Both the position numbers and the translations under genes were made by a program. From positions 192,001-256,000 of the forward strand of contig CP045477.1 in assembly GCA_009392915.1 (NCBI GenBank): 64,000 nt of DNA, read 5' to 3'. Position 1 is the stretch's first letter. Every line of letters begins with the position of its first letter. This DNA is from Candidatus Forterrea multitransposorum CG_2015-17_Forterrea_25_41 (lineage in GTDB: Archaea; Iainarchaeota; Iainarchaeia; Iainarchaeales; CSSED10-239). Under the pieces are notes generated by a model. It worked only from the letters and a program-made list of their open reading frames with translations. It had not been told where the DNA came from and did no database searches. Shown piece by piece: positions 4,006 to 34,340 of the stretch.

Positions 4006-6414
4006 TTATTCTATATTTAAATTTAAATTTTCAGTAATAGTTTGTTCTTGATCTGTCACTGATAATGTTATTGTGTGTTCTCCAACAGACAATGTTGAAA
4101 TATTAATATCACAATTATCTAAAGAATATTGATTATTATATAGTTTTGAAACATCTTCTTGATCTATTGCTTCATCAAAAATTAAAATATCATCCATTTT
4201 ACCATTAAAAAAATGATCATAAGTTCCAACAACTCCATTATAAGCTATAGCAGCACCAATTGCAACTGGCAAGCTATTTGATATTGATCCATAAGTTCCA
4301 ATAGGAACACTAGCATCAAGAATTCCATTAATATAAAAATTTAAATCTTGGTTGTCTTTATAAGACATAATAACATTATACCAATTATTTTGAGCATATA
4401 GAGAACCACAATTACTACAACTTTTATAGTTACTTTGAGCATCATCAATACCAGAATAAATATCCCAATTACTAGAAACATTATTAATCATTAATTGCCA
4501 ACCTGCATAACTTCCTCCGGCACCTCTTCCTCTAGTATTAATTATTCTTTGATATCCAGAACCAGTAGGATTTATCCATGTTGATACAGTAATTTCATCT
4601 AAATTTGAACTAATATTATTATCTAAAGTTGCATAGCTTGAAGTTCCATTAAAACTTAATGCATTATTTTCTCTTCCAAATCTGTCTGTTGTTCTAGTTA
4701 CATTAAATAAAGTTCCGTCAATATTCCCTATATTATCATAAATAGTATCTCCTGTAGTTTCTTCAAATCTATATTCTGCATATGGTTTTTGATATGTTAA
4801 ATTTCCATCAATTGATGATGCCCAAGAACAAGAATAATTTCCTACATTATTTGTAATATTTGTATCTATTTCTATATTATCTCCTAAAGTATATACATTT
4901 GAATCAATATTTATTTCTGCATTTAAAGATGGATTTTCTACAGTTATATTTTTTGTTTCAGTAATAGTTTGTTCTTGATCGGTCACTGATAAAGTTATGG
5001 TGTGTTCTCCAACAGACAATGTTGAAATATTAATATCACAATTATTTGAAGAATATTGATTATTATATAGTTTTGAAACATCAGAACTAGAAATTCCATT
5101 ATTAAAAATAATAATATCATCTAACTTTCCATTAAAAAAATGATTAAAAGTTCCATACACTCCATTATATGCAACTGATGTCCCAATTGCTGTTGGTAAG
5201 CTGTTTGTTATATTTCCATATGGATCTAAATTTACACTTTCATCTAATTGTCCATCAACATAAAAATTAAGATTATTATCTTCATCAAAAGACATAACAA
5301 AATGATACCATTTTCCAAGTGTCAAACTATTTCCACAAGTGTTACAACCAGTAAATGGACTTGTTGAAGAATCAACTCCTGAATAAAGATAAAAATTACT
5401 AGTTGTATCATTAATTAATATTTGCCATCCTTCAACATCTGAAGCTGCAGATCCTCTTGTGTTTATAATTCTCTGATATGTACTAGATCCATTTGATAAA
5501 AACCATCCTGATATTGCAAATCTATTAAGTTCTTGACTTATATTATTATCTAATAAAACATAGCTTGAAGTTCCATTAAAGCTTAAAGCCTTATTTTCTC
5601 TTCCAAATCTATCTGTAGTTCTTGTAATGTTATATCCATTACCATCAATATTACCTATTAAATCATAAATTATATTTCCTGAAGTTTCATTAAAATCCCA
5701 TCTTGCATAAGGTGTTTTACTTGGTATTAAGTTTCCATCAATTGATGATGCCCAAGAACAAGAATAACTTCCAACAGGGTTATTTACTTCTGATGTGAAA
5801 TTAATTGGTTCTGAAAATAAGAAAGAAGTTGCTTCTATTGGATTTGAAATATCTATAGTTGTCACAGTTTCTATTGGATTTAGATTTGGTCTTTCTTTTT
5901 GAAGATTTAATTTTTCAGAAGAATCAATTTCTCTTAAAAAACTTATTTTGTTTCTACTTATTTTTTTAATATAAATAATTGTTTTTGTGTTATTAAGATA
6001 TATTCCTTGTTCTATATCTATTCCATTGATGTCTAAACCAACAATTAATTTTTCAAATTCTCTAAAAGTATAAATTTCTCCTTCTCTAATTAATTGTCCT
6101 TCTTTATAATAATTTCCAGAAATATTATGAAATATTTCTATTTTATCTAAATTAGAATCTGCTTCAAAACTTAAACCATCAAGGTCTATTACAAAAGAGA
6201 CAACAGATCCATTTGAATTTTCTAAAACTTCTTGTATTTTTCCTTGAATTTCTTCAATATACATTCTAGATTCTTCAAATTTTTGTTGTGAATTATTTCT
6301 TTCAATTGCAGGAACAACTCCTTGATAAATAAGTCCTACAACAGCAACAATAATAAATATAACTAAGATATAACTTAAAATTTCAGAAGCTCCTCTCTGA
6401 TTTAGTCTTTTCAT
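4006..6414 (-). CDS. Secreted surface protein with class III signal peptide and two tandem LamG/ConA-like + PKD-like repeat units
   Basis: 802-aa ORF; N-term MKRLNQRG|ASEILSYILVIFIIVAVVGLIY; two ~290-aa internal repeat units (aa 196-487 and 505-797) each with SYSCSWASSIDGNL, RWDFNETSGN / YRFEETTGD LamG signature, and terminal GEHTITLSVTDQEQTIT; repeat units also nearly identical at DNA level. Confidence 0.75.
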   Translation of the reverse strand: MKRLNQRGASEILSYILVIFIIVAVVGLIYQGVVPAIERNNSQQKFEESRMYIEEIQGKIQEVLENSNGSVVSFVIDLDGLSFEADSNLDKIEIFHNISGNYYKEGQLIREGEIYTFREFEKLIVGLDINGIDIEQGIYLNNTKTIIYIKKISRNKISFLREIDSSEKLNLQKERPNLNPIETVTTIDISNPIEATSFLFSEPINFTSEVNNPVGSYSCSWASSIDGNLIPSKTPYARWDFNETSGNIIYDLIGNIDGNGYNITRTTDRFGRENKALSFNGTSSYVLLDNNISQELNRFAISGWFLSNGSSTYQRIINTRGSAASDVEGWQILINDTTSNFYLYSGVDSSTSPFTGCNTCGNSLTLGKWYHFVMSFDEDNNLNFYVDGQLDESVNLDPYGNITNSLPTAIGTSVAYNGVYGTFNHFFNGKLDDIIIFNNGISSSDVSKLYNNQYSSNNCDINISTLSVGEHTITLSVTDQEQTITETKNITVENPSLNAEINIDSNVYTLGDNIEIDTNITNNVGNYSCSWASSIDGNLTYQKPYAEYRFEETTGDTIYDNIGNIDGTLFNVTRTTDRFGRENNALSFNGTSSYATLDNNISSNLDEITVSTWINPTGSGYQRIINTRGRGAGGSYAGWQLMINNVSSNWDIYSGIDDAQSNYKSCSNCGSLYAQNNWYNVIMSYKDNQDLNFYINGILDASVPIGTYGSISNSLPVAIGAAIAYNGVVGTYDHFFNGKMDDILIFDEAIDQEDVSKLYNNQYSLDNCDINISTLSVGEHTITLSVTDQEQTITENLNLNIE

Positions 6415-6739: not shown

Positions 6740-8188
6740 ATGCACGAAGATCTTTTTAACACCCTAAACCCACATCAAAAAGCATATATTAATTTTGAAA
6801 TTCCAAATGTTAAAAATGGAGAATATATGTTATGTGCTTTCCATTTAAGACCTGGAGGAGATTTAAATATCTTACAAGCAGCTTGTGAAACAGCAGCTGA
6901 ATCTTCAACTGGTACAAATTTTTTAGTAAACACAGAAACTCCTTTTGCAAGAGAGATGAATGCTTTAGTTTATAAATTAGATTTAGAAAAAAGTTTAGTA
7001 TGGATAGCATATCCTTGGAGACTTTTTGATAGAGGAGGAAATGTTCAAAATATCTTAACATACATTGTAGGAAATGTTTTAGGTATGAAAGAAGTTTCTG
7101 CAATTAAACTTTTAGATGTTTGGTTTCCACCAGCTATGCTTGAACAATACGATGGACCTTCCTATACTTTAGATGATATGAGAAAATATTTAGATGTTTA
7201 TGATAGACCAATTTTAGGAACAATTATAAAACCAAAAATGGGTTTAACTTCAGCAGAATATGCAGAAGCATGCTATGATTTCTGGGTTGGTGGAGGAGAT
7301 TTTGTTAAAAATGATGAACCTCAAGCAAACCAAGATTTCTGTCCATATGATAAAATGGTAAAACATGTAAAAGAAGCTATGGATAAAGCTGTAAAAGAAA
7401 CTGGTCATAAAAAAGTACATTCTTTCAATGTTTCAGCTGCAGATTATGATACAATGATTGAAAGATGTGAAATGATTGTTAATGCAGGTTTTGAAAAAGG
7501 ATCTTATGCATTTTTAATAGATGGAACTACTGCAGGTTGGATGGCAGTTCAAACTTTAAGACGTAAATATCCTGATGTTTTCCTTCATTTCCATAGAGCA
7601 GGACATGGAGCATATACAAGACCTGAAAATCCAATTGGTTTTTCTGTTTTAGTATTATCTAAATTTGCAAGACTTGCAGGAGCTTCTGGTATTCATACAG
7701 GAACTGCAGGTGTAGGAAAAATGGCAGGTACTCCAACAGAAGATATTACAGCTGCAACTGGTATTTTAAAATTAGTCTCAGAAGGACATATTTTCCATCA
7801 ATCATGGTCAACTGTTCCTGAAAAAGATTTAGATGTTGTAAAGCTTGCACAAGAGGATGAAGCTCATCATGTTATCTTAGAAGATGATAGTTGGAGAGGT
7901 CTTAAAAAATGTACTCCAATAATCTCTGGTGGTCTAAATCCAACTCTTCTTAAACCATTTATTGATTTAATGGGTGGAGTTGATTTTATAACAACTATGG
8001 GTGCTGGTTGTCATGCTCATCCAAAAGGTACACAAGCAGGCGCTAAGGCTTTAGTTCAAGCATGTGAAGCATACCAGAAAGGAATTTCTATTGAAGAATA
8101 TTCAAAAGATAGACCTGAGCTTGCAGAAGCTATTGAGTTTTTTACAAAGAAAAAGCATGTTGATAACTTAAAGAAGGAGTTTTCTTAA
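6740..8188 (+). CDS. rbcL: Ribulose-1,5-bisphosphate carboxylase/oxygenase large subunit, form II/III (archaeal/DPANN type)
   Basis: 482-aa ORF with catalytic signature residues: GTIIKPKMGL, GGDFVKNDE (carbamylated Lys + metal ligands), HFHRAGHG, ISGGLNP; GGTG RBS upstream. Confidence 0.9.
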   Translation: MHEDLFNTLNPHQKAYINFEIPNVKNGEYMLCAFHLRPGGDLNILQAACETAAESSTGTNFLVNTETPFAREMNALVYKLDLEKSLVWIAYPWRLFDRGGNVQNILTYIVGNVLGMKEVSAIKLLDVWFPPAMLEQYDGPSYTLDDMRKYLDVYDRPILGTIIKPKMGLTSAEYAEACYDFWVGGGDFVKNDEPQANQDFCPYDKMVKHVKEAMDKAVKETGHKKVHSFNVSAADYDTMIERCEMIVNAGFEKGSYAFLIDGTTAGWMAVQTLRRKYPDVFLHFHRAGHGAYTRPENPIGFSVLVLSKFARLAGASGIHTGTAGVGKMAGTPTEDITAATGILKLVSEGHIFHQSWSTVPEKDLDVVKLAQEDEAHHVILEDDSWRGLKKCTPIISGGLNPTLLKPFIDLMGGVDFITTMGAGCHAHPKGTQAGAKALVQACEAYQKGISIEEYSKDRPELAEAIEFFTKKKHVDNLKKEFS

Positions 8189-9462: not shown

Positions 9463-10002
9463 TTATTCTTTAAGTAAATAATAAATATCTTTATCTAAGA
9501 TTAAGTTATTTACTTTTCCTAATTTTTCTTTTTTAATAATACCATTTTCTTCAAGTTTTAAAATTAGTCTATGAACTTTAATCTTTGATAACCCATCAAT
9601 ATATGTAAGTTCATATTGCCTTACTTTTCCATCATTTTCTAATATCTTTTCAATAATCTTTTTTTCATCTTTAGTTAAAAGATTAAGTATGGTTTTACTC
9701 TTAACATTAATATTTTTTTCTTTTTGATTAATTTCTTCAGATAAAAGATAGTAGATAAGTAACCCTACAAACATTCCAAAGAATGCACTAATAGGTATTA
9801 GATAAAAAGAATAATTTGATTTTTCTGGTTTATTTAACATCTGTTCTTTAAGTTCATCTATAGTATAAAGATCTATTGTTGTAATATCAATAGTATTCTG
9901 ACTTCTATTTATCTTTTGTTGTGCAGATAAAAATAAAAGAGTTGAAACTATTAATAATATAAAAGATAATAAGACAGCTAAGATAATTATTTTTTTGTTC
10001 AT
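9463..10002 (-). CDS. Membrane-anchored winged-helix transcriptional regulator (two TM segments + C-terminal wHTH)
   Basis: 179-aa ORF; N-terminal and central hydrophobic helices, C-terminal KIIEKILENDGKVRQYELTYIDGLSKIKVHRLILKLEENGII resembles HTH/wHTH. Confidence 0.45.
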   Translation of the reverse strand: MNKKIIILAVLLSFILLIVSTLLFLSAQQKINRSQNTIDITTIDLYTIDELKEQMLNKPEKSNYSFYLIPISAFFGMFVGLLIYYLLSEEINQKEKNINVKSKTILNLLTKDEKKIIEKILENDGKVRQYELTYIDGLSKIKVHRLILKLEENGIIKKEKLGKVNNLILDKDIYYLLKE

Positions 10003-10178
10003 AATAGATATATTGTTCTTTTCTGTTTTTATTCTTTATTGTTTATATATAGTTTCAGTTAATCAAACCATAGTTTCATAAAAGAGTATATATCGTTACA
10101 CTTATAATTATCTAGTACTTTAAAGGGTTTTTTTAAAAGTTTGTTAAAAACTTTTTAAAGTAAAATTAAAAAAAAAAG

Positions 10179-10613
10179 GTGAAAAAAAATATGAATAATA
10201 AAACAAAAATAATTGCCTCTATCCTTACATTGTTTAGTTTTCTTTTAGTTTTAGGAACAGTAAGTGCATACAGAGGAGATGTAACAAAGCTAGGTCCAAA
10301 CTACGATCCTGTAGTACATGCAAATATGCAATTTGCAATTGAAGCTGGAGATTATCAAGCTTGGAATGATATTGTTTCTTTAAGAGATAATAATTCAAAG
10401 ATAACTACATATATAACAGAAGAAAACTTTGAAGAATACAGTAAAGCATACCTTTCTGCTTTATCAGGAGATTCATCTTCTTTACAAGAGTTTAGAGCTT
10501 CTTTAGGTTTAGGCCAAGGTAATCAATATAGAGGATCTAATAAAGGTTCTTTAAATGAAAACTCTAATTCTTTAGGTCAAAAGAAAATGAATAGATACAA
10601 CTCTACAAATTAG
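10179..10613 (+). CDS. Small secreted protein, hypothetical
   Basis: 144-aa ORF with N-terminal signal peptide (KIIASILTLFSFLLVLGTVSAY); GGTG RBS; no recognisable domain. Confidence 0.4.
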   Translation: MKKNMNNKTKIIASILTLFSFLLVLGTVSAYRGDVTKLGPNYDPVVHANMQFAIEAGDYQAWNDIVSLRDNNSKITTYITEENFEEYSKAYLSALSGDSSSLQEFRASLGLGQGNQYRGSNKGSLNENSNSLGQKKMNRYNSTN

Positions 10614-10765
10614 TTTTTTTTAATAGGTTATAAAAATTAATTAAGATTATTTATTTAATCTTTTTTTCTTTTATAAGTTCTTTTTTTAAATGTATTTATG
10701 CTTAATTATATTATTAGTTTATAATTCTATTTTTCTTTTAAGAAGAATATTTTATATGAATTTTT

Positions 10766-10837
10766 GCTTCTGTGGCTCAGTGGTAGAGCGCAACCTTGGT
10801 AAGGTTGAGGTCGCGGGTTCGACTCCCGCCAGAAGCT
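10766..10837 (+). tRNA. tRNA-Thr (anticodon GGT)
   Basis: Acceptor GCTTCTG/CAGAAGC, D arm GCTC-AGTGGTA-GAGC, anticodon arm CAACC-TTGGTAA-GGTTG, T arm GCGGG-TTCGACT-CCCGC, discriminator T. Confidence 0.85.
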
Positions 10838-10995
10838 TGATGCACAAAAATAACTAATTTGTGCATTTGAAATATACTTTTTAATCTTTAATTATACCAA
10901 ATTATATGCATTTATAAATAGATTATAACGGACTTATAATCTTTTAGTAAAAGACTATATTTAAAAACATTTCTGTTATATATTATATTAGTGAT

Positions 10996-12267
10996 TTGTA
11001 TATGGATAAAGATTTTTTAAGAAATGTTATTACTGATCAATATGAAGATCTAAAAGATGTTTCTAAAACGGTTTTAAGATATGATTTAAAAGAAATAACA
11101 TCTTTTGTAGAAAATCCTGCAATTTCAATAATTTCAGGAATTAGAAGATGTGGAAAATCAACTTTTTTAGAACAAATAATTAACCTACATTATAAAGATG
11201 ATTTTTATTATTTTGATTTTTCAGATGAAAGAATTTCAAGATTTCAAACAGAAGATTTTCAAAAACTATATGAAGTATTTTTAGAAAAATTTGGAAAAAG
11301 AAAAGCATTTTTCTTTGATGAGATACAAGAAGTTCCAGATTGGAATAAATTCGTAAATAGAATGAATAAAATAGGCTATAAATGTTTTGTTACTGGTTCA
11401 AACTCAAATTTATTAAGCAAAGAATTATCCACATACCTTACAGGAAGACATATAGATAAAGTTTTATTTCCATTTTCTTTTAAAGAATATTTAGTATATA
11501 AAAATATAAATATTGACTTAGATTCTACAAAATCAAAAACCTTAATTATTAAAGAATTTAAAAATTATTTTAAATTAGGGGGTTTTCCAGAAGTTGTTTT
11601 AACAAATGACACTTCAATTTTATTAAATATTTATTCAGATATTATTTCAAAAGACATTATTGAAAGATTTAAAATAAATGATATTTCTCTATTTAAAGAA
11701 TTTTGTAATTATGTTATATCTTTATCTACAAATGAATTTACTTATAAATCATTAAAAGATAATTTTAAAATTCAAAATATAACTACTGTTTCAAATTATC
11801 TTGATTATTTAAAACTTACATATCTTGTTTATGAAGTTAAAAGATTTTCTCCTGCTTTACAGAAATTAAATAAATTTCCAAAAAAATATTATTGTATTGA
11901 TAATGGGTTATTAAATAAAGTTGGTTTTGGATATTCAATAGAAGAGAGTAGATTTTTAGAAAATCAAGTTTTTATTGAACTTTGGAGAAACAATTTAAAT
12001 TCTGAAATTTATTATTATAGAAATAAAGATAATAAAGAATGTGATTTTTTAGTATTAAATAACAGAAAAGTTGCTAAAGCTATTCAAGTTTGTTATGCTT
12101 TTAAAAAAGCAGAAACAAGAAATAGAGAAATTGAAGGTTTATTATCTGCTTTAAAAGAATTTAATTTGTCTTTTGGAGAAATTATAACCTTTGAACATAA
12201 AGAAAGATTAGAAATTGAGGGTAAAATTATAGAAATGATTCCTATCTATGAGTGGTTATTAAAATAA
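10996..12267 (+). CDS. AAA+ ATPase, AAA_14/DUF4143 family
   Basis: 423-aa ORF; Walker A ISGIRRCGKST, Walker B FFFDEIQ, overall layout typical of archaeal DUF4143 ATPases; lies between tRNA-Thr and a degenerate copy of its 3' half. Confidence 0.65.
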   Translation: MYMDKDFLRNVITDQYEDLKDVSKTVLRYDLKEITSFVENPAISIISGIRRCGKSTFLEQIINLHYKDDFYYFDFSDERISRFQTEDFQKLYEVFLEKFGKRKAFFFDEIQEVPDWNKFVNRMNKIGYKCFVTGSNSNLLSKELSTYLTGRHIDKVLFPFSFKEYLVYKNINIDLDSTKSKTLIIKEFKNYFKLGGFPEVVLTNDTSILLNIYSDIISKDIIERFKINDISLFKEFCNYVISLSTNEFTYKSLKDNFKIQNITTVSNYLDYLKLTYLVYEVKRFSPALQKLNKFPKKYYCIDNGLLNKVGFGYSIEESRFLENQVFIELWRNNLNSEIYYYRNKDNKECDFLVLNNRKVAKAIQVCYAFKKAETRNREIEGLLSALKEFNLSFGEIITFEHKERLEIEGKIIEMIPIYEWLLK

Positions 12268-12272
12268 AAAAT

Positions 12273-12313
12273 GAGCGCTTTTAACCTAAGGTTTAGTTCC
12301 TGCCAGAAGCTTT
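12273..12313 (+). repeat. Degenerate duplicate of the 3' half of tRNA-Thr (candidate attR-like scar)
   Basis: TGAGCGCTTTTAACCTAAGGTTTAGTTCCTGCCAGAAGCTTT aligns with tRNA-Thr 10785-10837 (AGAGCGCAACCTTGGTAAGGTTG...CCCGCCAGAAGCTT) including an exact 11-nt GCCAGAAGCTT match. Confidence 0.5.
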
Positions 12314-12402
12314 GAACCGGTTTCGCTCGGTTCACGCGCAATCTTTAAAAGAGCTGGTTTCGATCAGTTAACACGCAATGGTTCTTCTTTTTCTTCTAGA
12401 AA

Positions 12403-13170
12403 TTAAGCTTTTCTGAACAATAAAAATCCAATTGTAATTAAAAATAAAGCAATACAAATAGATGCAGCAGTAATTATTTCAGGATATTGATTATTAAAAC
12501 CAACAGAACTTGTATGCTTAATAATAATCCCAAAATATGCCCACGCAAAAACTAAAATATAAGCAATATCTCTATTTCTAACACTGGTTAAAATACCAAT
12601 AATAGAACCTACTAAAAGAATAGCAATTGTCCAAATACTTTCACTAATACCAAAACCATTCCATCCAACACTAACAAGAAAAGCTGTAATATTTGCAATT
12701 GTTGCAACTGTTATCCATCCAAAGTAAATACTAAATGGAAGGGATAAAAAGAAAAAATCTTTAGACTTATTTTCTCTTATTAGTAAATTAATTTTAATTA
12801 AACAAAATAATATACCTAGCATAAAGATTATAGATACCCATAATAAACCATAATGCCAAGAAAAGATCCATAATGCATTAGCTACAGAACTTATAATAAA
12901 ATAAATACTTATCTTGTTTAATAATTTATTTTCTTTTAAACTAATTTTTTTAAAAGTTTCAAATTGATATAAAACAAATAAACCTAATAACAAATAAATT
13001 ATACCCCAGATAGAAAAAGTAATTCCTGCAGGAGCAAATAAGTTAGGATATAGGTCAGAGACAGCCCCTGTATCAATGTTATTTATTGGCAGGGCATTAG
13101 CTAAATAATTAACTACAATCATTACTATATAGACTAATGCTACAAAAATTTTTCTTAATATAAAATTCAT
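12403..13170 (-). CDS. Polytopic membrane protein, possibly TspO/MBR-related (tryptophan-rich sensory protein-like)
   Basis: 255-aa ORF, 6-7 predicted TM helices; N-terminal NYLANALPINNIDTGAVSDLYPNLFAPAGITFSIWGIIY resembles TspO-related family N-termini. Confidence 0.35.
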   Translation of the reverse strand: MNFILRKIFVALVYIVMIVVNYLANALPINNIDTGAVSDLYPNLFAPAGITFSIWGIIYLLLGLFVLYQFETFKKISLKENKLLNKISIYFIISSVANALWIFSWHYGLLWVSIIFMLGILFCLIKINLLIRENKSKDFFFLSLPFSIYFGWITVATIANITAFLVSVGWNGFGISESIWTIAILLVGSIIGILTSVRNRDIAYILVFAWAYFGIIIKHTSSVGFNNQYPEIITAASICIALFLITIGFLLFRKA

Positions 13171-13316
13171 AATTATTTCTTAAACCAAAACATATTTATA
13201 TGTTATTTCTTAAATATTTTTTTAAAATTAATCTACAAATATTTTTTAACTTAAGTTTTTAGCTAAAATTTTAATAATTAATATTTTTTAAAAATACATC
13301 TCTATTTATATTTTTT

Positions 13317-13784
13317 TTGTTTTATTTCTTAATTATGGCAACAAATAAAGCTGTAAAAGCAATAATCTTTAATAAAGATAATCAAATGTTAATTTTAAAA
13401 AGAACTCCTCTTTATAAAAGAAAAGGCAAAATTAATGTTTTAAAAAAATATGCACATTTAGATAAAAAAAATATATATGATCTCCCTGGTGGAAGACTTG
13501 AAATAAATGAAACTATCAAAACTGGCCTTAAAAGAGAAGTTTTTGAAGAAACAGGACTTAAAATTAAAATCTTAAAAAAAGTAAGTTCTTGGGAATTTAT
13601 TTCTTTAGATAATAAAAAAGTAGAAGTGACTAATTTTCTTTGTGAAATTAAAAAGAATACTTCAAATAAAATAATTTTAAGTCAAGAACATGATAATTAT
13701 AAATGGGTTGATCTTAAAAATATTAAAAGATATAGTTTTAAAGATAAAAGTTTTTTTGATTCTTTAAAATTTTTATCTAAATAA
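13317..13784 (+). CDS. NUDIX hydrolase
   Basis: 155-aa ORF with Nudix box GGRLEINETIKTGLKREVFEETGL (Gx5Ex7REUxEExGU). Confidence 0.8.
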   Translation: MFYFLIMATNKAVKAIIFNKDNQMLILKRTPLYKRKGKINVLKKYAHLDKKNIYDLPGGRLEINETIKTGLKREVFEETGLKIKILKKVSSWEFISLDNKKVEVTNFLCEIKKNTSNKIILSQEHDNYKWVDLKNIKRYSFKDKSFFDSLKFLSK

Positions 13785-18972: not shown

Positions 18973-20421
18973 TTGTGTTTTATTATGATTTTCAAACAAT
19001 CAAAGAATCAAATTAAAAGAGATTTCTCTTTTTCTGTAAAAGATGGGATTTTTTGGGTACTAATGAATTCTATAGCTATAATTTTTTTAGTTCCATATTT
19101 AGTTTCTTTAGGTGCAAATTCTTTTCAAATAGGTCTTTTAAATTCATTTCCTTTATTTATAACTTCTTTTTTAGTTTTAATATCTTATAAACTTTTAAAA
19201 ATATTTAAATCTAAAAAACATGCAGTTGTAATTTTTTTAACATTACAAGCTTTAATGTGGATTCCTCTTGCAATGGCTTATTTCTTTTTTCCAAATTCAA
19301 TTACTATTTGGATTATAATTTTAATTTATACAATAATAACTGCTTTAGGAACAATTATTCATCCAATTTACATGGACTGGATAAGAAAACTTTTTCCAAC
19401 AAAACAAATGGGTTCTTATATTGCAAAAAAAAATATAATTTTAGAGTTTGTTTCAATTTTTCCAATTTTTTTAATAGGTTATATTTTAGATGTTATTTTC
19501 AAATCAAATACTTTTATTGGTTATTCAATAATTTTTGTATTTGCAGGAATATTTAGATATTTTTCAACAAGATTTTTAAATAAAATGAGTGAAACAGAAG
19601 ATAAAGAAGCTATTTTAAAACTTGTAAAAGAAAAAGAAAAAATTCCTCTTTTAAAATCTTTTAAAGATGAAGTTATAAAAGATAAGTCTTTTTTAAAGTT
19701 TTTAATTTTTATCATTCTATCATATATTGGTATTCACTTAGCAACTTCTTATGTTTCTTATTTTGTTTTAAACTTTTTAAATTATTCTTCTACTCAATAT
19801 GTTCTATGGAAAATTTCTTTTATTTTAGGAACTGTTTTAAGTTTAAGTTATTGGGGTTATATTTCAGATAAATATAGTCCTGTAAAAGTTTTACAAATAA
19901 GTACTTTATTTATGCCTTTATTTTTAATAATTCCTGCATTCTTTTATTCTAGTTATTCTTTAATGATTTTTTCAATTTTTGTTGGAGGTGTTATTTTTGG
20001 TGCTTTTAATTTAGGGGTTTTAGATTATCTTTTTAAAAATATAAAAAGAGATTTAATAGGTCATAGTTCTTATTTTTTAATAATACAAGCAAGTTCAATT
20101 TTTATTGGAACTCTTCTAGGTTCTGGAATAATTTATTTAGCAACAAAATTTTATTCTTCAGAATTCAAGGCTTTAATATTTTTATTTGTATTTACAATAT
20201 TTTTTAGATACATAGCATTTTTCTATTCTTTAAAGCTTAAAAAATTAGAAAGAAGAGATCTTAGATTTTTTAAATATGTTATTTTTCAAAGACCTGTTCT
20301 TTATGGTTTACTTCAATTTACTCATCTTTCACATGAAGAAAAAAAATTACTACTTGATTTAAAATTAAAATCTGAATTTAAAAAAATTAAATCAAAATTA
20401 TTTAATCAGAAAAAACAGTAG
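18973..20421 (+). CDS. MFS-type transporter
   Basis: 482-aa ORF with ~12 TM helices in two halves separated by a charged loop (NKMSETEDKEAILKLVKEKEK). Confidence 0.5.
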   Translation: MCFIMIFKQSKNQIKRDFSFSVKDGIFWVLMNSIAIIFLVPYLVSLGANSFQIGLLNSFPLFITSFLVLISYKLLKIFKSKKHAVVIFLTLQALMWIPLAMAYFFFPNSITIWIIILIYTIITALGTIIHPIYMDWIRKLFPTKQMGSYIAKKNIILEFVSIFPIFLIGYILDVIFKSNTFIGYSIIFVFAGIFRYFSTRFLNKMSETEDKEAILKLVKEKEKIPLLKSFKDEVIKDKSFLKFLIFIILSYIGIHLATSYVSYFVLNFLNYSSTQYVLWKISFILGTVLSLSYWGYISDKYSPVKVLQISTLFMPLFLIIPAFFYSSYSLMIFSIFVGGVIFGAFNLGVLDYLFKNIKRDLIGHSSYFLIIQASSIFIGTLLGSGIIYLATKFYSSEFKALIFLFVFTIFFRYIAFFYSLKLKKLERRDLRFFKYVIFQRPVLYGLLQFTHLSHEEKKLLLDLKLKSEFKKIKSKLFNQKKQ

Positions 20422-22924
20422 CTGTTTTTCCTCCATCCCATGTAATTCTTGGTCTTATTTTTAGAAGCATTACTTTTTCGGAGTTATCATCAATCATTAT
20501 TGCATATCCTTGTTCTTTTGGCATTTGTGCATAATATTTATCCATAGGTATATTTAGATAACTAGGTCTAATTGATGAAACTGCTTGAATATCTTCTTGT
20601 GCTGTCATTCTCATACTTAAGAAAAGATCACATTGAGAGATTGTTTCAGAATGTAGTTTATTTGGTCTTTGGGTTGCAAGGATTAATGAAAGTCCTGGTT
20701 GCCTTCCAACTCTTATCCATTGCAATAAAACATCTAAAGCCATACTAGGTCTGTCTTGAGGCATAAACATGTGTGCTTCATCTATTACCATCCAGACAAT
20801 AGGCATTTCACTTGTTTTTCTTTTTCCTTCAAGAAGATTTTTTTCTTCTTCTTTTCTATAAAGCATTCTTTCTTCATATAGTCTTTTTCCTAAAAGTCCA
20901 ACTATAAGTTCTTGAACTGATTCCATTCCAATTGCTTGTTTATATGTTGAAACATCAATTGTTGTAATTGTTCCTGGCTTTGCAAATTCTTTCATAGTTG
21001 TTCCTGATTTTGAAAAAAGACCCCATGATTTTGCAATTTTCATTCTATTTATTAAAGAGTCTTTAATTTCTTTTGTTGTTTCTGAATCTGTTAAAGCTAC
21101 TTTAATAATATCATCAATATCATAAAGATTTCCAAGTTTTTGTTTTAAAATATCAATACTTCTTGACAGAAGTCCAGATTCTGGATCTCTCCAAGTTAGT
21201 CTAAAAAGACCAAGCCAGTCTTCTAAATCTACTTGTGAAGATCTTATTGAAAAAGGTGAATCAAAAGGTATTTCTTTTTCTTTATAAAAATCTTGTTTTC
21301 CTGCAGGAATCATATTTCTAATACCAATACCATCTGCCTTTAAATCCCATTTATCTAATAGTTCTTTAGGTACTTCTTTATTTGGATAGTTCATGGTCCA
21401 AAAAATACCTACAGTGTCAATAACAATTACAGAAAGTCTATCTTTAACATCAAAAGGTTGTCTTGCAAATTCTTCCATAACAACAGATAGAGTATAACTG
21501 TTGTGTATTATTATATTATTTGCAATAAAATTATGGTTTTTTAAAACTGTTATGTCATAAACTTCAAATTTTCCTTTTAAATGATTAATTTCTTTAATCT
21601 CATCCCAATAGATATCTGATGTTGCTATTTTTTCAAGTTCTTTATTATTTTCTTTTTTTGCAATAATTAATAATTTTTCTCTTGAAGGTGCATAATTTAT
21701 TGATGATCTAATTGCTTTTGGTGTTTTATAATTAAATTCTACACCAATATTTTTCCATCCGTTTAAAGGTTTAAAATTATTCCAAATTTCTTTAGGAATT
21801 GTATCAATATTTGGATTTTTAATTTTATTTTTATATTTTAATGTTTTTTTTTCTTTTTCTCCAATAAATCCAATTTCTTTAATATATTTTTCTACATCTT
21901 GTTCTAATATTTCAAGTTCATAACTATCTCTTTTTTTAGTTTTCTTTTTTCTAATTTTTGAAAGTATTTCTAGTTTTAATAAGATTCCTTGAATCTGTAG
22001 TATCATTTTTTTAGAAGAAGATGAGTAACTTATTCTACATCTTTTTTCTTTTTCAAAATAAATTGTTCCATCACAACTAAACATTCTATTTAAAAATAAA
22101 GCAAGGTTTTCTTTTTTTTGTTTAAATATAATTTCTGGAATTTCTTTTTGATATGATAATTTATTATACATTCCAATTTGTTTAATATATTCTTTTAAAC
22201 TTCCTTTCTGGTATGGATTTTCTTTTCCTTTTTTCCATATAACTTTGTAATTATATTTTCCTATTTCTTTTAAGTCTAGTTCTTTATCAAATAATTTTAT
22301 TGAAGATCTAAAATCATTTACAATTTTGTCATCACCATTACAAAAAAGTACAACTCTATTTGAAAGATGCCCTTCTGCAAGAAGATATGCAATTAATTTA
22401 ATATTTTCTTTTTTTAATTTATCTTTACCTATATTATTTAATTTTCTAGGTGTTGCAATTCTTGACTTTACTTTAAGATCTTTTGCTTCTTTCCAACCTT
22501 CTAAAGTAAGTAATGGATGTTCTAAAGTTAATTTTATTTCTTTTCCACTTCTAAGTTTAATTTCTAAAAGTTCATTTACTTTTCTTTTAAAAAAGTTTTC
22601 TTTTTTAGCTTTTTCTATTTTTAAATTATCATTAATAGACATTACTTTAAGATTTGTATTTTCTAAATCTTTTATTTCAATTTCTCTTCCATCTTCTAAA
22701 GCTATTAAAGTGTCTCCAGTTACACATTTTCCGCCGCCCCTTTTTCCGCAGATAATCATTACATGTGATCTTGAAAGATCCATTAATACTTTTTTACCTA
22801 AAACAGGGTCATCTCCTCCAGAGACAACTACTTTTCCTAAATATCCAGTTGCTTTTTCTTTGTATTTATCAAGATCGCTTTGTTTTCTTCCAACTACAAT
22901 ATTATCTGTAAAATCTAAACTCAT
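20402..22924 (-). CDS. HerA/FtsK-superfamily ATPase (DUF87/AAA-like) interrupted by an intein in the P-loop
   Basis: 840-aa ORF; Walker A HVMIICGKRGGGK|C...IIIHN|SYT split by a 409-aa insertion beginning Cys and ending His-Asn followed by Ser; Walker B VWMVIDEAHMF; C-terminal ILATQRPNKLHSETISQCDLFLSMRM motif of HerA/FtsK ATPases. Confidence 0.8.
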   Translation of the reverse strand: MSLDFTDNIVVGRKQSDLDKYKEKATGYLGKVVVSGGDDPVLGKKVLMDLSRSHVMIICGKRGGGKCVTGDTLIALEDGREIEIKDLENTNLKVMSINDNLKIEKAKKENFFKRKVNELLEIKLRSGKEIKLTLEHPLLTLEGWKEAKDLKVKSRIATPRKLNNIGKDKLKKENIKLIAYLLAEGHLSNRVVLFCNGDDKIVNDFRSSIKLFDKELDLKEIGKYNYKVIWKKGKENPYQKGSLKEYIKQIGMYNKLSYQKEIPEIIFKQKKENLALFLNRMFSCDGTIYFEKEKRCRISYSSSSKKMILQIQGILLKLEILSKIRKKKTKKRDSYELEILEQDVEKYIKEIGFIGEKEKKTLKYKNKIKNPNIDTIPKEIWNNFKPLNGWKNIGVEFNYKTPKAIRSSINYAPSREKLLIIAKKENNKELEKIATSDIYWDEIKEINHLKGKFEVYDITVLKNHNFIANNIIIHNSYTLSVVMEEFARQPFDVKDRLSVIVIDTVGIFWTMNYPNKEVPKELLDKWDLKADGIGIRNMIPAGKQDFYKEKEIPFDSPFSIRSSQVDLEDWLGLFRLTWRDPESGLLSRSIDILKQKLGNLYDIDDIIKVALTDSETTKEIKDSLINRMKIAKSWGLFSKSGTTMKEFAKPGTITTIDVSTYKQAIGMESVQELIVGLLGKRLYEERMLYRKEEEKNLLEGKRKTSEMPIVWMVIDEAHMFMPQDRPSMALDVLLQWIRVGRQPGLSLILATQRPNKLHSETISQCDLFLSMRMTAQEDIQAVSSIRPSYLNIPMDKYYAQMPKEQGYAIMIDDNSEKVMLLKIRPRITWDGGKTATVFSD
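21500..22726 (-). mobile_element. Intein (Hint domain + LAGLIDADG homing endonuclease) inserted in Walker A of the ATPase
   Basis: Extein/intein junctions GGGK|CVTGDTLIALEDG and NNIIIHN|SYTLS; internal IAYLLAEGHLSNR and LALFLNRMFSCDGTIYF resemble the two LAGLIDADG blocks. Confidence 0.75.
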
Positions 22925-34108: not shown

Positions 34109-34301
34109 GGGGACATGGGGTAGCCAGGTTAACCTTACAGGCTCCAGATATTTTTTAAATTAGAAAGTAATCTGGAACGCAGGATGTTTTTTTTTAAAAA
34201 AAACAGATGATTGATATTATACAGGTTTGTTTAATTTTATATTTATATAAAATTGAAATAGGAGAAACCTGTAGACCCGGGTTCGAATCCCGGTGTCCCC
34301 A
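34109..34301 (+). tRNA. tRNA-Trp (anticodon CCA) with a ~119-nt intron at the canonical 37/38 position
   Basis: 5' exon GGGGACA-TG-GGGT...ACCT-T-ACAGG-CTCCAG (34109-34147); 3' exon A-CCTGT-AGAC-CCGGG-TTCGAAT-CCCGG-TGTCCCC-A (34267-34301); intervening AT-rich 34148-34266. Confidence 0.75.
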
Positions 34302-34340
34302 TATCTTTCTTTTTTTATAAATTTTAAATTTTGATTATAA

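Follow-up and report, generated by a model that had tools for sequence, protein, structure and literature searches.

The intact tRNA-Thr(GGT) gene considered here lies in a 64,000-nucleotide stretch of archaeal DNA (contig CP045477.1, positions 192,001 to 256,000), hereafter called the window, whose own numbering is used throughout. Downstream of the tRNA gene lies a partial copy of its 3' half, and the only open reading frame (ORF) between the two encodes an ATPase with AAA_14 and DUF4143 domains. The locus is bounded upstream by a gene for a secreted-looking protein and downstream by a TspO-like gene that is convergent with the ATPase. The features are collected in Table 1; loci fetched from other contigs are designated by L numbers.

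The two repeat copies, TCCCGCCAGAAGCTT at the tRNA end and TCCTGCCAGAAGCTT downstream, agree at 14 of 15 nucleotides (nt), have the same orientation, and are spaced 1474 nt apart. They share an exact 11-mer, GCCAGAAGCTT, which has no further site in the 64 kb; when up to one mismatch is allowed, three matches are found versus 0.45 expected. Local alignment of the tRNA with the 135-nt intergenic stretch gives a score of 25, higher than all 2000 shuffles (maximum 24), and in the real sequence an equal score is reached by other tRNA genes only. A first-pass annotation of this DNA had described an intact tRNA-Thr followed by a copy of its 3' half with an exact 11-mer, and this description is upheld by ARAGORN, Rfam, the repeat search, and the shuffles. 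Its longer alignment of 12273-12313 with 10785-10837 holds as well: from the 3' strand of the D-stem onward the fragment follows the tRNA, except that the anticodon loop is shortened and 13 nt are missing between two GGTT repeats, and it reads GAGCGC..AACC.TAAGGTT..TC and then CTGCCAGAAGCTT.

Table 1. Features of the tRNA-Thr locus in the window and cassettes of the related array (positions in the window unless a locus is named).
Feature	Position	Strand	Evidence or remark
Upstream boundary gene, 140-144 aa, secreted-looking	10179-10613	+	No Pfam family; homologue in same position at L005
Intact tRNA-Thr(GGT), without encoded CCA	10766-10837	+	ARAGORN; Rfam RF00005, 74.2 bits; with its upstream region ~95% identical to L005
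Left repeat copy (attL-like core) TCCCGCCAGAAGCTT, inside/at tRNA end	10824-10838	+	Exact 11-mer at 10828-10838
Inverted repeat ATGCACAAA / TTTGTGCAT, left end of inserted segment	10840-10866		Read from sequence; absent from L005
Conserved ATPase gene unit, ~100 nt promoter region plus ORF, ~1.37 kb	10899-12270	+	Five different loci
Gene-unit boundaries by blastn	10911-12269 (L013); 10899-12267 (L099); 10940-12271 (L105); 10934-12274 (L107)		
Palindrome TCTTTTAGTAAAAGA	10940-10954		Upstream of A/T-rich TATA-like box (~10956-10967)
AAA_14/DUF4143 ATPase, 421 aa, PADLOC PDC-S01 type	11002-12267	+	Pfam, PADLOC, AlphaFold
45-nt tRNA-Thr-derived motif (attR-like) AAAAATGAGCGCTTTTAACCTAAGGTTTAGTTCCTGCCAGAAGCT	12267-12311	+	nhmmer E 1e-12
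Right repeat copy TCCTGCCAGAAGCTT	12298-12312	+	Exact 11-mer at 12302-12312
Two 29-nt GC-rich hairpin units, between motif and TspO-like gene	12314-12342, 12351-12379	+	Absent from L005, L006
TspO-like 'tryptophan-rich sensory protein', 255 aa, downstream boundary gene, convergent with ATPase	12403-13170	-	
Array cassette: PadR, CARDB protein, FtsX, ABC ATPase (PadR/ABC transporter)	L096-L013 stretch		
Array cassette: ATPase type B	L096-L013 stretch		
Array cassette: 1935-aa GLUG protein	L096-L013 stretch		
Array cassette: Lnt-like protein	L096-L013 stretch		
Array cassette: HNH endonuclease	L096-L013 stretch		
Array cassettes: small membrane and zinc-ribbon proteins	L096-L013 stretch		
Array cassette: ATPase type A	L013		84% identical to the window's

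The first-pass annotation had taken the downstream fragment for a degenerate copy of the tRNA. It is instead a conserved 45-nt motif, often letter-identical beside unrelated cassettes in related archaea. The recurrence was found by a fuzzy search and then followed with an nhmmer profile built from the copies in related loci, the window copy itself included. In related archaeal populations the motif recurs as AAAAAAGAGCGCTTTTAACCTTTGGTTCAATTCCCGCCAGAAGCT. There are 17 other copies at E <= 2e-8, in L006, L013, L015, and L093-L098; E values in related loci go down to 3e-15, and the copies always carry the tRNA-Thr acceptor end. Several are letter-identical over all 45 nt within surrounding sequence that is unrelated. 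The last 22 nt of the motif in relatives match the tRNA 3' end at 20 of 22 positions without gaps; the window motif differs from the tRNA at 4 of these 22. All strong copies are intergenic, lie just past stop codons, and share the orientation of the gene before them. The window has one motif-bounded unit.

No sign was found that the fragment is part of a longer structured RNA, a possibility that had been named as an objection to reading it as a repeat. At E <= 10, Rfam finds only the true tRNA in 10000-13500 and nothing at 12260-12400, and at the gathering threshold it returns only true tRNAs in the whole window and in seven related loci. Neither 12262-12405, folded on each strand, nor any of three motif variants does better than shuffled sequence (z = +1.5, +0.9, and -0.2 for the variants), and the predicted structure varies among the variants. 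A split tRNA half or a tRNA-like structured RNA was rejected, since the fragment has neither a covariance-model match nor a stable fold.

Evidence for insertion at this point comes from relatives, which were found by searching with the TspO-like protein; contigs were fetched from populations in which this protein is 74-93% identical. An uninterrupted tRNA-Thr without the insert, which the first-pass annotation had suggested looking for, is present in L005 (TspO-like protein 90% identical). There the TspO stop is followed by TTAA and then by tRNA-Thr(GGT), with no ATPase and no second repeat copy, and beyond the tRNA-Thr the upstream region and the adjoining ORF correspond to those of the window. 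Window and L005 are ~95% identical up to GCCAGAAGCTT and unrelated directly beyond it; the junction falls exactly at the repeat. In L006 (82% identical), the same TspO stop and TTAA are followed by AGCTTCTGGCGGGAATTTAACCAAAGGTTAAAAGCGCTC, the motif, where L005 has the tRNA. The cargo after it is another ATPase (type B), 45% identical to that of the window over the C-terminal 146 amino acids (aa). The same junction is thus seen empty (L005), with an ATPase of type A (window), and with an ATPase of type B (L006). Insertion at the 3' end of tRNA-Thr, as the first-pass annotation proposed, is supported by the empty site and by the variety of cargo found at this junction.

L003, L008, L009, and L010 retain relics of the motif immediately after the stop of the TspO-like gene, with the orientation unchanged. 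Beyond the relic, L010 has HicA/HicB, and L003 has an aspartate decarboxylase-like gene; the L003 relic (7547-7634) is split by a 43-nt insertion with a GC-rich hairpin of its own (CGCTCGCCAACTCAGCGAG). In a tree of the TspO-like proteins, the window, L008, and L009 form one clade with 100% bootstrap, nested in a clade with 86% bootstrap; of the members of this larger clade, L005 alone has neither the motif nor a relic of it. The simplest account of the empty site in L005 is therefore a precise loss, with the tRNA core and the motif as its end points.

Arrays of motif-bounded cassettes are found in a related population. When JGI metagenomes were scanned with a variant of the motif to which the window has no match, six contigs were returned. 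L096 (identical to L015), L098, L097, and L013 overlap at 99.6-100% identity and give a stretch of ~20 kb, in which about 10 co-oriented motif copies separate unrelated cassettes (Table 1). The array opens at L096 121-166 with a 46-nt perfect 3' half of tRNA-Thr, running from the anticodon stem to the 3' end; no 5' tRNA half is recognisable there, and neither ARAGORN nor Rfam calls a tRNA. The array goes on beyond L013 in L094, and in L095, from the same metagenome, another cassette follows the same motif.

The cargo in the window is a single gene, as the first-pass annotation had stated: Pfam and the single 421-aa ORF confirm that the bracketed segment holds the ATPase and no integrase. Pfam assigns it AAA_14 (PF13173, E 9e-36) and DUF4143 (PF13635, E 2e-22), and the PADLOC model PDC-S01 (PDLC04787) matches at E 5e-105 over residues 24-421. 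The likeness to PDC-S01 is thus full length and comprises an ATPase plus a domain of the PD-(D/E)XK superfamily. The Walker A (GIRRCGKST at residue 46) and Walker B (FFFDE at 103) motifs are both intact. The C-terminal PD-(D/E)XK-like module has an invariant E320, E346-x-D348, and Q362-V; the usual lysine is not evident (Q362-V-C). An AlphaFold model made with 43 homologues has a pLDDT (predicted local distance difference test) of 91 and matches AAA+/STAND proteins, namely CED-4, RFC, RuvB, Orc1, MalT, and Avs. A sequence search of the PDB finds no relatives of the ATPase, and NCBIfam has no name for it or its neighbours. In the literature, PDC-S01 is defined as AAA_14 plus DUF4143 (COG1373), is a candidate defence gene reported to be common in Archaea, and is ranked by one survey as the fourth most common 'defence' family in prokaryotes; DPANN archaea are reported to be enriched in several PDC candidate systems (PMC12988326). 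DUF4143 is listed in the catalogue of PD-(D/E)XK proteins (PMC3424549). The PDC-S01 literature that was found makes no mention of bracketing by direct repeats or of placement at tRNA genes. Most likely, the ATPase is cargo that serves a candidate defence role and has no shown part in its own movement.

A check of composition and codon usage, along the lines suggested by the first-pass annotation, gives no foreign signal. The ATPase gene is native in both respects (z = -1.1 for G+C content and -0.8 for G+C content at third codon positions; codon-usage distance 27th of 37 ORFs), and a foreign composition of the cassette was therefore rejected.

A search for similar cassettes elsewhere finds, besides the motif-bounded cassettes of the relatives, the ATPase gene unit at five loci. 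DNA homology to the loci with orthologues at 84%, 87%, 72%, and 67% identity is confined to ~10900-12270, and the surroundings are unrelated. The repeat-bounded segment exceeds this recurring unit by just 60 and 30 nt. Within the unit, a palindrome lies ~50-60 nt upstream of the ATPase start, with counterparts at ~5915-5935 in L099, ~5480-5500 in L105, and ~15-35 in L107. Its sequence changes between loci (variants include TCTCTTTTGATAAAAGAGA) yet stays palindromic. Judged from these sequences, the palindrome and the TATA-like box are probably an operator and promoter that travel with the gene.

One copy of the unit is bracketed by repeats of another kind. The L099 paralogue (protein 87% and DNA 85% identical), apparently from the same genome as the window to judge by the NCBI accession series, stands between exact 99-nt direct repeats (5729-5827 and 7278-7376) that are the 3' end of a reverse-transcriptase (RT) gene, and this arrangement is seen in six independent assemblies. 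Its neighbours in L099 1-8200 are a diversity-generating retroelement (FGE-sulfatase-like target, bAvd, and RT), a DDE transposase, and HicB/HicA; the HicBA block has 86% DNA identity to the HicBA beside the L010 motif relic. Decayed motif copies flanking this paralogue, suggestive by eye, were rejected because the profile is not significant (E > 1).

Repeats around the family as a whole were surveyed in 80 species-level genomes with ATPase homologues (L013-L092), 66 of which have full flanks. Direct repeats of 35-133 nt bracket 12 of the 66 homologues, across bacteria and archaea. For example, the 124-nt repeats of L079 (98% identical; 3811-3934/5263-5386) reach from the end of a host gene into the start of the following one, those of L058 are 78 nt long (99%; 3727-3804/5344-5421), and the 58-nt repeats of L039 (3713-3770/5289-5346) include 15 nt of the 3' end of a tRNA-Glu. 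Several loci have repeat arrays of three to five copies, with five in L020. Among control ORFs in the same loci, 7 of 125 score as high; five of these seven are AAA_14/ATPase_2-type ATPases, one is Fic, and one is a Bro-N protein. The raw enrichment of the family over the controls is modest (Fisher p = 0.04), and some of the repeats may be homologous ends of tandem paralogues (L075). Repeats of different lineages share no sequence or fold. A family-wide association with tRNA genes was rejected, a tRNA lying within 700 nt of just 3 of the 80 homologues. It is conceivable, albeit unlikely, that PDC-S01-type ATPase/nuclease genes and AAA_14/ATPase_2 genes are widespread single-gene mobile cassettes that share one insertion mechanism without a conventional integrase or transposase. 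They would insert at the 3' ends of tRNA or protein genes, keep the target intact, and leave direct duplications of 15-133 nt; such a mechanism would cover the tRNA-Thr case, the exact 99-nt case, and the 12 bracketed homologues, with the encoded protein or template-switch repair as its possible driver.

No integrase or recombinase gene, pseudogene, or fragment was found in the ~10 cassettes, in the 64-kb window, or in the other fetched loci. For the window, Pfam was searched with the ORFs of 100 aa or longer from 8.2 to 51.2 kb, except for two overlapping ones; the scan did not extend to the two giant ORFs at 51.3-63.9 kb, and precomputed Pfam hits for the window start are also free of integrases. 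The larger cassette ORFs were included, and relaxed Pfam and PHROGs searches were applied to unknown proteins. A cognate integrase-bearing element that uses the same site was found neither in the fetched loci and the window nor in IMG/VR. A viral or plasmid source of the site was rejected after the motif and the 22-nt tRNA-Thr 3' end gave no IMG/VR hits; the 15-mer has more than 120 hits there, none of which extends under the motif profile.

Taken together, these observations make it probable that 10839-12312 is a minimal single-gene cassette, inserted at the tRNA-Thr(GGT) 3' end in a recombination hotspot that the tRNA anchors. Its hosts would be small, AT-rich archaea, probably DPANN and Iainarchaeota-like. 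The cassette would be a self-contained unit, comprising the palindromic operator-like sequence, a promoter, and the ATPase, and ending in the 45-nt motif, whose last 15-22 nt repeat the tRNA 3' end. We infer that recombination between a motif copy and the core at the tRNA 3' end brings about the gain, loss, and exchange of cassettes. Recombination of attL with attR (the attachment sites, att) would give the empty site and a circle, and the reverse reaction would integrate a circle beside the tRNA. The likeliest agent may be a site-specific recombinase supplied in trans by the host or by a virus or plasmid, with short-homology recombination as a fall-back. A recombinase in trans is favoured because the identical core is short (11-22 nt) and the motif copies are letter-perfect.

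Several points weigh against this reading. The mechanism is drawn from end products alone, and the search that found no recombinase covers only the 64-kb window and the fetched relative loci. L005 is placed within the TspO tree with a bootstrap of just 27%. The repeat copies in the window are only 14/15 nt alike, and the motif departs from the tRNA at 4 of 22 positions; therefore, the event would be old or the crossover region very short. The orthologues at 87%, 72%, and 67% identity lie at other loci, without the motif or a tRNA, and the exact 99-nt target duplication of L099 is not a product of simple att-core recombination. Finally, the native composition and codon usage of the cassette give no sign of a recent foreign origin.

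The first-pass annotation had left a choice between an eroded island remnant and a minimal mobile cassette. The minimal cassette fits better because no integrase remains, the conserved unit consists of promoter plus ORF, and the same unit is bracketed by repeats at a site that is not a tRNA. We consider it unlikely that the segment is what is left of an integrase-encoding virus, plasmid, or island that has lost everything but one cargo gene and the attR. The 46-nt perfect tRNA-Thr 3' half in L096 does resemble a long att overlap, which is associated with archaeal integrases. An intact tRNA with a direct repeat of its 3' end is moreover the textbook footprint of such an element, as the first-pass annotation had pointed out, and some of the ssrA tandem islands in Dehalococcoides are without integration modules (PMC3146451). 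The repeat and the empty site of that footprint are indeed present here, but an integrase-driven mechanism is not borne out: neither the ~10 cassettes nor the window retains a trace of an integrase, the 60 and 30 nt beyond the gene unit leave no room for decayed genes, the composition is native, and the viral contigs of IMG/VR are free of both the motif and the tRNA-Thr 3' end. Quite unlikely, too, is the view that the ATPase gene is itself mobile, its protein or a provoked copy-paste repair inserting the gene into the 3' ends of other genes and leaving behind a long target duplication of variable length, of which the tRNA-Thr fragment would be one. Such mobility would agree with the recurrence of the 1.37-kb unit at five loci, with the exact 99-nt repeats of the L099 paralogue in six assemblies, and with the survey, in which the 12 bracketed homologues are joined by five related ATPases among the seven high-scoring controls. 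It fits poorly with the tRNA-Thr array, where the motif also bounds cassettes that lack an ATPase, and with L105 and L107, whose orthologues have no flanking repeats. Its support in the survey is further reduced by the modest enrichment and by repeats that are possibly ends of tandem paralogues, and the protein lacks an evident PD-(D/E)XK lysine. Duplications that vary from 15 to 133 nt fit no transposition chemistry known to us.

It is very improbable that the 45-nt motif marks gene ends as a functional RNA or a signal for transcription, for instance a terminator or a 3' processing site of tRNA-like type, and owes its resemblance to tRNA-Thr to that function and not to recombination. The position and direction of the strong copies, all of them intergenic, past a stop codon, and co-directional with the preceding gene, would suit a signal of this kind, and the motif holds GCGC followed by TTTT as well as a small AACC/GGTT hairpin; by inspection, its GCTTTT can pair with AGAAGC in the manner of an acceptor stem. 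Against this, folding stays at the level of shuffles with a structure that depends on the variant, Rfam matches true tRNA only, copies decay freely in several lineages, and copies cluster in one array downstream of a tRNA-Thr sequence; a cassette-free allele with its junction exactly at the repeat is left unexplained. A chance resemblance is scarcely credible, and so is a remnant of some old, local duplication of the tRNA that has nothing to do with the ATPase. Near-identity within the window does cover just 15 nt, and other tRNA genes of the window reach the same alignment score via shared T-arm sequence, but neither accounts for a motif that recurs with E values as low as 3e-15, always with the tRNA-Thr acceptor end, nor for the exact junction common to the empty and occupied alleles.

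On comparison, the closest known systems to the proposed minimal cassette appear to be integrase-less att-flanked elements, defined as cis-mobilizable elements (CIMEs; PMC6323972), and the ssrA tandem islands of Dehalococcoides. In the latter, one island or more follow an intact RNA gene, and every island ends in a direct repeat of the RNA gene 3' end; immediately before each repeat comes a short conserved stretch derived from the element, content varies between strains, and 16 islands bear a serine recombinase module (PMC3146451). The present locus likewise has, on structural evidence only, an attL and an attR without integration or transfer genes; an intact RNA gene, 3'-end repeats, a conserved stretch upstream of the repeat, and variable content are common to both, and tandem units between att repeats occur in the related population of L096-L098-L097-L013. 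It differs in that no integrase-bearing island was seen in its arrays, in the far smaller size of the units (a single gene of 1.47 kb at the lower end), in having an archaeon with a small genome as host, and in a repeat that is a rearranged 45-nt tRNA derivative, in contrast to the plain 20-bp copy at ssrA. With classical tRNA-targeting elements the locus shares the intact tRNA (attL), the partial 3' copy (attR), and the single core in the empty allele. Unlike these, it has no integrase, no other element genes, and no compositional signal, and the cargo amounts to a single gene of cellular appearance that has a promoter of its own. Integrons and clusters of attC sites lacking integron integrases (CALINs) resemble the arrays in that small cassettes, mostly co-oriented, are each accompanied by a recurring repeat similar to a recombination site, and in carrying defence-type and toxin-antitoxin cargo. 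The attC sites are imperfect palindromes with R''/L''/L'/R' boxes that fold as hairpins. An integron with attC-like repeats was rejected here, as the motif and the repeats of other lineages share no common palindromic fold and no IntI integrase adjoins the array; the arrays are furthermore tRNA-anchored, and their cassettes have their own promoters and may hold several genes or an ORF of 1935 aa.

Other features of the locus and of the window deserve mention. Between the motif and the TspO-like gene, 12313-12402 holds a repeated hairpin element that is absent from the first-pass description. The 29-nt unit consists of a 5-6 bp stem, the loop GTTTCGNT, and the tail ACACGCAAT, and its stems appear to covary (CCG/CGG versus CTG/CAG). 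It has no Rfam match. It occurs once directly after tRNA-Ser(CGA) in L099 (15428-15456), and L008 and L009 have single decayed units. An origin of the hairpin repeats at 12314-12379 as decayed tRNA pieces was rejected, as their alignment to the four tRNAs of the window is at shuffle level. The tRNA-Thr gene and its upstream region are flanked by a 17-nt inverted repeat that is 94% complementary (10605-10621 and 10846-10862), with one arm where the upstream ORF ends and the second barely inside the cassette. A probable tRNA gene with one or more long introns lies at ~34111-34303 on the plus strand (GGGGACA, about 120 nt, and then GGGTTCGAATCCCGGTGTCCCCA); its acceptor and T-arm look perfect, and it is missed by ARAGORN and Rfam. 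The ATPase and the TspO-like protein are encoded on 663-kb contigs recovered repeatedly in assemblies of JGI metagenomes. The window DNA is ~25% G+C overall. It also encodes a form III-type RuBisCO and, at 20402-22924 on the minus strand, an 840-aa ORF that bears an intein with a LAGLIDADG domain. Its last 22 kb (41363-63900, plus strand) hold three giant ORFs of 2671, 2323, and 1867 aa, with one ORF of 559 aa between the first two.

DPANN-type archaea have tiny genomes in which CRISPR-Cas and restriction-modification are reported to be under-represented, and how they acquire and exchange defence genes is poorly known. The tRNA-Thr locus would represent a compact route, by which single genes or small sets may be added, lost, and swapped at a tRNA-anchored site without a recombinase in cis. 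The core GCCAGAAGCTT gives a precise site with which the responsible enzyme might be found. Members of the PDC-S01 family are bracketed by repeats more often than other genes in the same loci, which may offer a lead on how such genes spread.

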